This document shows, one piece after another, positions 51,646 to 60,102 of a stretch of DNA of 64,000 bases. The stretch is from assembly GCA_000004695.1 (NCBI GenBank), contig CM000150.2, positions 3,328,001-3,392,000 on the forward strand. The letters run 5' to 3'. How positions within the stretch are numbered: position 1 is the stretch's first letter; each line of letters opens with the position of its first letter. The translations under genes and the position numbers were made by a program. The notes under the pieces were generated by a model, which worked only from the letters and a program-made list of their open reading frames with translations, was not told the origin of the DNA and did no database searches. Origin of the DNA: Dictyostelium discoideum. Lineage: Eukaryota.

Positions 51646-52666
51646 ATGCCACCACCCCCACCACCACCACCTAAAGCACCACCACCCCCAGCAGCTCCAC
51701 CAAAAACTGCTGAAAGAGGTGCTTTACTCAGTTCAATTCAAAAGGGTTCAAAATTAAAAAAAACAGTCACTGTAGATAAATCTGGTCCAGTTTTAACAGG
51801 TATGTAAATCATAAATTTTCAATTATGAAAATAATTAAATTCAAGGAATGAATGAATGAATAAATTACTTATTTTATATTTTTATTTTTTTAAAATTTAA
51901 AGCACCAAAACCATCAGGAGGTGGAGGTATGCCAACTCCAGGTGGAGGAGGTATGCCAAGACCAGGAGGTGGTTCATCAGGAGGTGGTGCACCAGGTCCA
52001 CAATTGGGTGGATTATTTTCAGGAGGTATGCCACAATTGAAACCATCAGGTGGAACATTGAAAAAAGCTGCACCACCACCAATGATGGCACCAGTTCAAG
52101 CTGCCCCACCATCCTATGGTAAACCATCAGCACCAACTCCATCATTTAAAGCACCACCAACCGCTTCACCACCAGCATTCAAAGCACCACCACCATTCAA
52201 GGCACCACCAACCGCCACACCACCAACACCAACTCCATCATTTAAAGCACCACCAACCGCTGCACCACCAGCTTTCAAAGCTCAACCAGCACCACCACCA
52301 TCATTTGGAGGCGGTCCAAAACCAGCACCACCACCAGCAAGACCACCACCACCACCATCAAGAGCTCCATCATCATCTGGTGGTGATGATTCACAAGCAT
52401 TAAGAGACCAAATCTCTCAATTGGAACAACAAGTTAGAGATTATCAAAATAAAGTTCGTCAACTTGAATCTGATTTGGCTGCCGCTAAAAAATCATCTTC
52501 AGGTACTGGTAAGAAAGCTGTTGCTCTCTACGAATATTCTTCAAATGAACCAGGTGATATCAACTTTAAAGCTGGCCAAAATATTGATATTATCTCTGTC
52601 GAAGGTGATTGGTCAACCGGTAGAATAGAGGGTGTATTCCCAACCAATTATACAAAACTTCTTTAA
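51646..52666 (+). CDS. Actin-regulatory adaptor with N-terminal polyproline + WH2 motif, proline-rich core, coiled coil and C-terminal SH3 domain (about 306 aa)
   Basis: Two exons: join(51646..51799, 51903..52666). Donor G|GTATGT, acceptor tttaaAG, phase 1. Exon 1 reads MPPPPPPPPKAPPPPAAPPKTAERGALLSSIQKGSKLKKTVTVDKSGPVLT, where RGALLSSIQKGSKLKKT matches a WH2/verprolin motif. SH3 domain ALYEYSSNEPGDINFKAGQNIDIISVEGDWSTGRIEGVFPTNYTKLL. Confidence 0.75.
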
Positions 52667-52929: not shown

Positions 52930-53016
52930 CATAAAATTCAAATCCATATTTAAAATAAATATGACAGAATTTAAAACAAGATTTTATGTCTATTAAAATA
53001 TTCTCAAATTTTATTT

Positions 53017-53082
53017 AAACTTTGAGAATATTTTATTTAAACTTTGAGAATATTTTATTTAAACTTTGAGAATATTTTATTT
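53017..53082. repeat. Tandem 22-bp repeat (aaactttgagaatattttattt) in three copies, preceded by one inverted degenerate copy at 52995-53016
   Basis: Directly visible. It lies about 250 bp upstream of the Cys-rich secreted protein gene and next to a GC-richer island. Confidence 0.85.
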
Positions 53083-53177
53083 AAACTTTTAAATAATAAA
53101 AAGTTTTTTATTCAAAGTTAAATGTCTATTTGCTTTTCAAAGAGTTTCAGTCAGAATATGGGATCAAGGGGAATTTT

Positions 53178-53185
53178 TTGTGGGT
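53178..53185 (-). promoter_or_regulatory. Candidate DUSE (Dictyostelium upstream sequence element) motif ACCCACAA on the minus strand, inside a GC-richer intergenic island (53140-53215)
   Basis: Plus-strand ttgtgggt is the reverse complement of acccacaa. This matches the [AT]CCCA[CT]AA element reported about 60 nt upstream of Dictyostelium ncRNA genes. The surrounding segment gagtttcagtcagaatatgggatcaaggggaa is unusually GC-rich for this intergenic context. Confidence 0.3.
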
Positions 53186-53331
53186 TCCAACCGACCAGGA
53201 TTTTTGATTTTCTATTTTTTTTATTTTATTTTATTTTTTTTTTTTAATTTTATTTTGGCATTTTAGAATTTTATTTTTAACTTTTTTTTATTTTTTTTTT
53301 TTTTATTTTATTTTTAAATTCAAGAAAGAAA

Positions 53332-53447
53332 ATGAGAAGTATTTTATCTTTATTAATTGTTGTAATTTTATCATTTGTTGCTTTATCAAATGCAACCGAT
53401 TGTGGAAAATATAAAAATCCATTGACTTGTGCAAGTAATTATCGCTT

Positions 53448-53491
<44 letters not shown>

Positions 53492-53974
53492 TCCAATTTC
53501 ACTAATATTATTTTATTAAAAATGAAAAGATATGGAACCTCCTTGTGTAATTATTAATTTATAAATAATAAAAATAATAAATAATAATTAATAATATTAA
53601 TAGTAATTAAATAACTAATACAATATCACATTTATTGTTCTTAATTTTAAAATAGTTCTGGGATGGTAAGGTTTGTAAAGAAATTTATCCAAAGAACTGT
53701 GCAGAGATGACAGTTGAGGATTGTGAAAGTAACAAAGAAAAGGGATGTTATTTGGAGGGTGAAAACTGTATTCTCTCAAAATGTAAGTTTTTTACTTTTT
53801 TTATTTTTAATTTATTAACCAGAAATATTAATATTTTTTTTTTTCAAATATTTACCAAAAAAAAAAAAAAAATAAAAAAAAAAAATTTATTTAGTCCATT
53901 GTTCATCAATCCACAATGAATTTGATTGCACCATCGAAAATTGTGCATGGAAAGATGGAAAATGTGAAAATTAA
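53332..53974 (+). CDS. Small secreted cysteine-rich protein (about 107 aa, 4 exons including a 17-nt micro-exon)
   Basis: join(53332..53434, 53530..53546, 53656..53782, 53895..53974). Signal peptide MRSILSLLIVVILSFVALSNA. Mature part TDCGKYKNPLTCA|NMEPPC|FWDGKVCKEIYPKNCAEMTVEDCESNKEKGCYLEGENCILSK|FHCSSIHNEFDCTIENCAWKDGKCEN, with 14 Cys. Donors are GTAATT twice and GTAAGT once. The micro-exon is needed to keep the frame between exon 1 (phase 1) and the Cys-rich exon (phase 0). Confidence 0.5.

Positions 53975-55679: not shown

Positions 55680-60102
<4,423 letters not shown>

Follow-up and report, generated by a model that had tools for sequence, protein, structure and literature searches.

A 17-nucleotide coding micro-exon in DDB_G0270922, a growth-phase gene of Dictyostelium discoideum for a predicted secreted protein of three four-cysteine modules

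Micro-exons that arise by intron gain in short-intron eukaryotes share a simple arrangement, in which a tiny coding exon lies between two short introns and relatives carry one longer exon in its place. The gene described here resembles such cases in these respects and differs from them in that four intron positions fall within about 20 nt in a small gene family. Its product invites comparison with two known protein modules. The PSI (plexin-semaphorin-integrin) domain (PF01437) is a small extracellular module rich in disulfides, and its core motif C...C-x-W...C recurs in the four-Cys module encoded here; PSI domains contain more Cys than that module does. The C-terminal domains of VSGs are described as containing one or two structured regions, in each of which four Cys, an aromatic residue and the fold are conserved (PMC12226131); the regions S, S1 and S2 of Trypanosoma brucei (PDB 5m4t, 2jwg, 6z8g and 1xu6) are the system with which the module is compared below.

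The window, by which we mean the whole 64,000 nt stretch of DNA that was analysed, is extremely AT-rich (GC content approximately 22%), and the locus of interest within it is the D. discoideum chromosome 1 gene DDB_G0270922 (Table 1). We explain this locus as a four-exon gene with a constitutive coding micro-exon, a secreted growth-phase protein of three modules as its product, and gain of the second intron, and we give this reading as a whole a probability of roughly 0.88. The spliced coding sequence (103 + 17 + 127 + 80 = 327 nt) specifies a 108 aa product, MRSILSLLIVVILSFVALSNATDCGKYKNPLTCANMEPPCFWDGKVCKEIYPKNCAEMTVEDCESNKEKGCYLEGENCILSKFHCSSIHNEFDCTIENCAWKDGKCEN. Exon 1 encodes the signal peptide, Cys24 and Cys33 of the first module, and the first base of codon 35. 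The micro-exon completes this codon (Asn) and then encodes Met-Glu-Pro-Pro-Cys40, and exon 3 encodes the sequence FWDGKVC that closes module 1 together with the whole of module 2 (Cys55-Cys78). An earlier reading of the same DNA, hereafter the preliminary description, gave neither of the boundaries at which exons 3 and 4 meet intron 3.

Table 1. Coordinates of the DDB_G0270922 gene model, of neighbouring features in the window and of related loci on other contigs (prefix L). A slash marks an exon boundary.
Feature	Position	Strand	Length	Details
Exon 1	53332..53434	+	103 nt	ATG at 53332; phase-1 end at GCAA/GTAATT
Signal peptide (codons 1-21)	53332-53394
Intron 1	53435..53529	+	95 nt	GTAATT...AAAAG; 12% GC
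A38 run	53452-53489			inside intron 1
Micro-exon	53530..53546	+	17 nt	ATATGGAACCTCCTTGT; 41% GC; between gaaaAG and GTAATT
Intron 2	53547..53655	+	109 nt	GTAATT...AATAG; 8% GC
Exon 3	53656..53782	+	127 nt	after aaaatAG; phase-0 start, phase-1 end; 53782/GTAAGT
Intron 3	53783..53894	+	112 nt	GTAAGT...TTTAG; phase 1
Exon 4	53895..53974	+	80 nt	TTTAG/53895; module 3, (F)HCSSIHNEFDCTIENCAWKDGKCEN; includes TAA at 53972-53974
AX4 model exons	53332-53434, 53530-53546, 53656-53786, 53823-53919	+
AX4 model intron	53787-53822		36 nt	GTTTTT...CAG
22 nt tandem repeat	53008-53089			ATTTTATTTAAACTTTGAGAAT; 3.7 copies; ~245-325 nt upstream of ATG
GC-rich upstream block	~53148-53200			TCAGAATATGGGATCAAGGGGAAT...CCAGGAT; ~130-185 nt upstream of ATG
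Upstream neighbour	51929-52666	+		ALYEYSSNEPGDINFKAGQNIDII...
Downstream neighbour	55680-57683	-		YEYKFVIDGNWEYDP
D. discoideum paralogue ACTFIR_011752 (P0016)	L009:2001-2599; also L010:1001-1702			139 aa
C. fasciculata tandem paralogue	L004:2157-2584			115 aa
D. dimigraforme model KAN... (P0003)	L006:3451-3913			113 aa
True last exon, D. dimigraforme	L006:3834-3913			restores 108 aa protein

The preliminary description held that exon 1 ends in phase 1, that the exon beginning at 53656 starts in phase 0, and that the 17 nt segment restores the frame between them. Both phases were confirmed on the window sequence, and in silico translation bears out the third point. When position 53434 is joined directly to 53656, the product ends ...TCAILGW and a stop follows after 38 codons; reading through intron 1 instead yields a poly-Lys tract and then a stop. 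With the 17 nt in place, (N)MEPPC is added and the frame stays open through to the TAA. We enumerated every GT/AG combination between 53332 and 53700, and the chain 53435/53530-53546/53656 is the sole one that keeps the entire exon 1 ORF in frame. All other in-frame chains rely on cryptic GTs within the signal peptide or the first Cys pair, and each of them truncates the signal peptide or removes at least one of the first two Cys.

The splice sites of the micro-exon are canonical, with an AG acceptor and a GT donor (gaaaAG/ATATGG...CTTGT/GTAATT), its flanking introns are of normal size (95 and 109 nt), and its GC content contrasts with the 8-12% of those introns. As had been claimed, its donor hexamer is identical to that of exon 1, and this shared GTAATT differs from the ideal GTAAGT. 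The one extra Cys that it was said to contribute is Cys40, the third Cys of module 1, which the first four-Cys unit would miss if the micro-exon were left out. The translation of the micro-exon is identical to the D. purpureum sequence ANMEPPCFWDGKVC, and chance is therefore excluded. On this sequence evidence the 17 nt micro-exon is confirmed as real and as required for the reading frame, and its inclusion appears to be constitutive. With a separate GT...AG pair in each, the flanking introns could be removed one by one, which would leave the micro-exon spliced in, presumably through intron-by-intron recognition in a short-intron genome; its omission would shift the frame into the stop after 38 codons.

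The inclusion junction has the sequence TGTGCAAATATGGAACCTCCTTGTTTCTGGGATGG and the skipping junction the sequence TGTGCAATTCTGGGATGG. The spliced-junction pattern gave no matches in metagenome contigs, and the exact 108 aa protein was found on genomic contigs only, with no transcript-derived contig among them. At the protein level, the predicted tryptic peptide NPLTCANMEPPCFWDGK straddles both micro-exon junctions, and the C-terminal peptides of the predicted product lie in FHCSSIHNEFDCTIENCAWK; the supplements of a whole-life-cycle proteome paper (PMC12821622) contain neither DDB_G0270922 nor its UniProt accession Q55DB9. The A38 run within intron 1 is 10 nt shorter in another D. discoideum assembly (L002) and is interrupted in L001.

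Orthologues were sought among 5.8 billion proteins, and their genomic loci were then used to solve each exon chain exactly. They were found in D. citrinum (94% identity), D. firmibasis (81%), D. dimigraforme, D. purpureum (69%) and Cavenderia fasciculata (62%). The motif xxEPPC is present at the micro-exon position in all orthologues found, and all 12 Cys are invariant among five of them. Two D. discoideum assemblies, two D. citrinum assemblies and D. dimigraforme have an identical structure of 103 + 17 + 127 + 80 nt. D. firmibasis has intron 1 at the same phase-1 site and no intron 2, and its 144 nt exon corresponds to 17 + 127 nt. The D. purpureum gene has a single intron here, 8 nt further downstream (NME/PPC, phase 0). 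In the C. fasciculata orthologue the whole region lies in an uninterrupted first exon of 256 nt, and the region is likewise within one uninterrupted first exon in a tandem paralogue of that species; the segment matching the micro-exon is CAGEEPPCFWDGKVC in both copies. The residues of the micro-exon thus belong to ordinary exons in three further species. The position of intron 3 is kept throughout the orthologues, and the paralogue shares it.

Among the three species that have the micro-exon, its length is constant and free of indels (D. citrinum, ACATGGAACCTCCTTGT; D. dimigraforme, ATATGGAACCACCATGT). All changes within it are synonymous, namely AAT to AAC in the split codon and CCT to CCA twice. 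The flanking introns of these three species, by contrast, have diverged and are 70-89% identical, with 5-21 gap columns.

Several further family members came to light in this comparison. The C. fasciculata tandem paralogue lies about 420 nt upstream of the orthologue and has the same single-intron structure; the Group-4 species checked have one copy at this locus, unlike C. fasciculata. No paralogue was found within the window. D. discoideum does have a paralogue on another contig, ACTFIR_011752, which comprises a signal peptide, three four-Cys modules and a 20-residue acidic insert, and this second family member may be unannotated in AX4.

The micro-exon is already known in public annotation. 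The exact 108 aa product is present in GenBank as the D. discoideum hypothetical protein ACTFIR_004556 (KAM9941111.1/KAM9961698.1), there are near-identical entries for other strains and for D. citrinum, and all public entries of the gene are named hypothetical or uncharacterized protein. The newer assemblies stem from one study (PMC12745789). The AX4 entry (EAL72811.1, XP_646212.1, UniProt Q55DB9) includes NMEPPC and shares residues 1-82 with the 108 aa product. The micro-exon occurs in XP_646212.1, in three more D. discoideum-group proteins from the newer assemblies, and in the D. citrinum and D. dimigraforme models, that is, in every public model found for genomes that have it, and the statement that it would be easily missed by gene predictors does not hold.

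The AX4 model probably goes astray at its 3′ end. It predicts 115 aa with an unconserved 33-residue C-terminus, and it reads on into intron 3, giving a tail of translated AT-rich intron. Were this RefSeq/UniProt entry the true product, the protein would contain only two and a half Cys modules, followed by a tail rich in Lys and Phe. The window reproduces the model exactly, and does so only with a 36 nt intron, about half of the minimum intron length of 70 set in one D. discoideum RNA-seq pipeline (PMC5295588) and far below this working minimum of the field. Its tail is conserved in no orthologue, and the alternative exon 4 product, FHCSSIHNEFDCTIENCAWKDGKCEN, is near-identical in all of them, following FHCSSI[HK]NEFDCTIENC[AV]W from D. 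discoideum to C. fasciculata. The alternative also has a GTAAGT donor and a phase-1 intron position in common with the paralogue. The AX4 model has next to no chance of being the true product; the last 33 residues of AX4/UniProt Q55DB9 are probably wrong, with loss of the third Cys module, and judged by sequence the four-exon model improves on the AX4 reference in its 3′ part.

The 3′ end of the public D. dimigraforme model is also wrong, using a distant exon, and the true last exon listed in Table 1 restores a 108 aa protein. Intron 3 of D. dimigraforme is approximately 383 nt long, compared with 96-121 nt in the other species compared.

The preliminary description had tied its model to expression of the gene, and the transcript proves to be abundant in vegetative cells, at 866 and 931 TPM (roughly 900 TPM) in cell-type RNA-seq data, compared with 6.4-7.0 TPM in cup, 6.0-7.6 TPM in stalk and 1.5-10 TPM in spore cells (PMC6198379 suppl. 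2). In a filter time course, raw counts were 998/3970 at 0 h, 594/922 at 4 h, 35/75 at 12 h and 21/41 at 24 h, and in suspension they went from 1217/4050/9797 at 0 h to 36/32 at 12 h (PMC4403905). The transcript is thus abundant during growth, and starvation switches the gene off. Exposure to Klebsiella lowered the transcript about 2.5-fold relative to the control (log2FC -1.35, adjusted P 5e-8; PMC7078664 Table S1), and there is therefore no sign of induction by food bacteria.

This level of mRNA bears on the possibility that the micro-exon is often skipped in regulated unproductive splicing, with a mostly truncated 38-codon ORF acting as an on/off switch. Skipping is mechanically feasible and yields a premature stop, but about 900 TPM would be unusual for a premature-stop transcript. 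Furthermore, conservation extends to the coding capacity of the micro-exon and to all 12 Cys, and relatives carry the same residues within longer exons, where they are not separately skippable. We consider frequent skipping highly unlikely and retain constitutive inclusion as the probable state.

The time courses also speak to function. Developmental profiling, which had been proposed as a check, reveals a growth-phase rather than a developmental gene, highest at 0 h and falling about 50- to 100-fold. A developmental signalling peptide or a component of the extracellular matrix or spore coat might have been expected from a small, Cys-rich protein with a signal peptide, and Dictyostelium matrix and spore-coat proteins are likewise Cys-rich. 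The growth-phase peak and developmental shut-off make a poor fit with a developmental signal or matrix protein. The transcript remains near 7 TPM in spore, stalk and cup, and the product matches no Pfam family, Dictyostelium Cys-repeat families included. Such a role is improbable, and the view that this is a typical secreted signalling or matrix peptide is not upheld. Full-text literature searches gave no mention of DDB_G0270922 or Q55DB9, a search for Dictyostelium microexons returned only a TopHat parameter line, and the Dictyostelium secretome literature searched yielded nothing usable.

The 108 aa pre-protein would consist of a 21 aa signal peptide and an 87 aa mature part ending ...KCEN. 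As the preliminary description stated, exon 1 encodes a predicted signal peptide, judged here by inspection: a positive n-region (MR) is followed by a hydrophobic h-region (SILSLLIVVILSFVAL) with a core of 16 residues and by SNA/TD, with small residues at -3 and -1. Ala21 is invariant in the orthologues. These features suggest that cleavage occurs after Ala21 (SNA/TD) and that the product is secreted. The mature part had been described as a 14-Cys peptide, but it contains 12 Cys, which are all the Cys of the product and form three modules of four.

The three repeat units (CGKYKNPLTCANMEPPCFWDGKVC, CAEMTVEDCESNKEKGCYLEGENC and CSSIHNEFDCTIENCAWKDGKC) are tandem modules of 22-24 residues with a spacing of roughly C-x8-C-x4-7-C-x6-C, usually with a Trp two residues after the third Cys. 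In an AF2 prediction of moderate confidence (pLDDT 65), each module forms a short helix and then a beta-hairpin from the third Cys. This model tentatively suggests a fold of short helix plus beta-hairpin, in which the micro-exon would supply the Pro-Pro-Cys that opens the hairpin of module 1; tentatively, six disulfides would form in total. Our best guess is that feeding cells would export a stable, disulfide-stapled protein that might serve as a spacer or binding module, either extracellularly or within the endo-lysosomal lumen.

The distribution of introns across the species bears on how the micro-exon arose. D. discoideum, D. citrinum and D. dimigraforme have intron 2, which D. firmibasis, D. 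purpureum and C. fasciculata lack. Beyond the first three species, intron 1 occurs in D. firmibasis only, and D. purpureum and C. fasciculata are without an intron at that site. The published species order places the discoideum clade, the citrinum clade and D. dimigraforme before D. intermedium plus D. firmibasis, with D. purpureum further out (PMC12745789, PMC6430600), and the ranking of DDB_G0270922 orthologues by identity agrees with it. Under this order, intron 2 would have entered a 144 nt exon after D. firmibasis had branched off, in the common ancestor of the three species that have it, and the micro-exon would be the result. Such a gain is favoured because one gain is more parsimonious than at least three losses. 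On parsimony, then, a recent gain is the most likely origin of intron 2 as the maker of the micro-exon.

The paralogue complicates this picture. ACTFIR_011752 and its D. dimigraforme orthologue carry an intron whose site is 2 nt 3′ of that of intron 2 (PPCF/W, phase 2), which leaves room for an older intron that may have moved. Within approximately 20 nt the family has introns at four positions. One interrupts codon 35 (phase 1), two of phase 0 follow codon 37 (in D. purpureum) and codon 40, and that of the paralogue lies one codon further on in phase 2. These look like repeated gain or sliding rather than a single clean event. Similarity between introns 2 and 1 is not significant, with about 9% of shuffles reaching the same level. 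Within the window, matches to intron 2 consist of (TAA)n-like simple sequence only, with no sign of tandem duplication or of a mobile 'introner'.

The protein matched no Pfam-A family, Dictyostelium Cys-repeat and VSG families included. With hmmscan at E <= 10, the only hit was Ragweed_pollen (E 1.9, 9 bits against a cut-off of 25). A comparison with known Dictyostelium families had been suggested; the protein is small, Cys-rich and has an N-terminus of signal-peptide shape, and no known Dictyostelium Cys-rich family in Pfam-A was matched. Foldseek returned nothing with E < 3 against the PDB. A likeness to a glucanase, seen when a whole-protein profile was compared with the PDB, was rejected as spurious; the match lies over the signal peptide.

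When the orthologue profile was run with HMMER against the full set of 1.84 billion representative proteins, only seven matches were obtained, comprising the orthologues, the paralogue P0010, the proteins P0011 and P0015, and three large proteins. P0011 and P0015 are small signal-peptide proteins from JGI metagenomes. The large proteins P0012-P0014 (840-1794 aa, E-values 1e-8 to 2e-5) hold 10-27 tandem copies of the four-Cys/Trp unit by regular-expression count. One such copy is CEELLNEFDCTRYGCYWYDGAC, to be compared with the third module of the DDB_G0270922 product given above. These proteins are probably bacterial, because two of the three start with lipoprotein-like signal sequences. An alignment of 49 units gave the consensus xxC-x8-C-x4-GC-x-W-x5-C, with the four Cys invariant and the Trp conserved in at least 90%. 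The repeats of P0012-P0014 are likewise not covered by Pfam, and nothing scored in a homology search with a 400 aa repeat stretch of P0013.

Of the relatives, P0011 (JGI/IMG) matched the PSI domain weakly and below the gathering score (E 0.061; 14.1 bits against 23.1), and neither the DDB_G0270922 product nor the relatives with 10-27 repeats matched it. The Dictyostelium module does show the four conserved Cys and conserved aromatic residue in a module of about 25-40 residues that characterize the structured region of the VSG C-terminal domain. Two independent weak pointers agree on this likeness, with neither score significant and the AF2 model only moderate, and they tentatively suggest a VSG-CTD-like fold. 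The Dictyostelium protein differs in being without the VSG N-terminal domain, its 87 aa mature part consisting of the three modules alone. We regard the relationship as a weak resemblance only, with homology unproven.

Taken together, these data permit a wider joint reading that we find tentative and on balance doubtful. The four-Cys module would be an undescribed extracellular domain family, possibly a true homologue of the VSG-CTD, and PPC/FW would be a hot spot of intron gain or sliding. The module may be 22-28 residues long with the consensus C-x8-C-x4-5-GC-x-W-x4-6-C, and it may be common to two small secreted dictyostelid proteins and to the large, probably bacterial lipoprotein-like proteins of 10-27 copies. 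The hot spot may have produced the micro-exon within the last 50-100 million years or so.

Two features were noted upstream of the gene. The first is a perfect 22 nt tandem repeat, which the window shares with one D. discoideum assembly (L002); a second assembly, L001, and the other species checked lack it, and this repeat is a strain polymorphism in the promoter region. The second is a relatively GC-rich block that is conserved in D. discoideum, D. citrinum and D. dimigraforme amid unalignable AT-rich sequence, and it may serve growth-phase expression as a promoter or transcription-factor element. ARAGORN found no tRNA gene in the window, this block included. The upstream neighbour encodes a Pro/Ala-rich protein with an end that is SH3-like by eye, and the downstream neighbour an Asn-rich protein with a C-terminus that by eye resembles a carbohydrate-binding module. 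Both neighbouring genes appear unrelated to the micro-exon finding.

The finding is correct and largely ordinary, and it leaves current understanding unchanged. Its annotation value is small: a 17 nt exon in a very AT-rich genome is confirmed, and Q55DB9 is flagged as probably wrong over its last 33 residues. No paper on the gene was present in the literature searched, and the analysis draws attention to an abundant growth-phase protein, predicted to be secreted, that is conserved across Dictyostelia in five Group-4 Dictyostelium species and Cavenderia fasciculata. For the gene family, the locus offers a small, neat case of a micro-exon that, on parsimony, would have been born by intron insertion.
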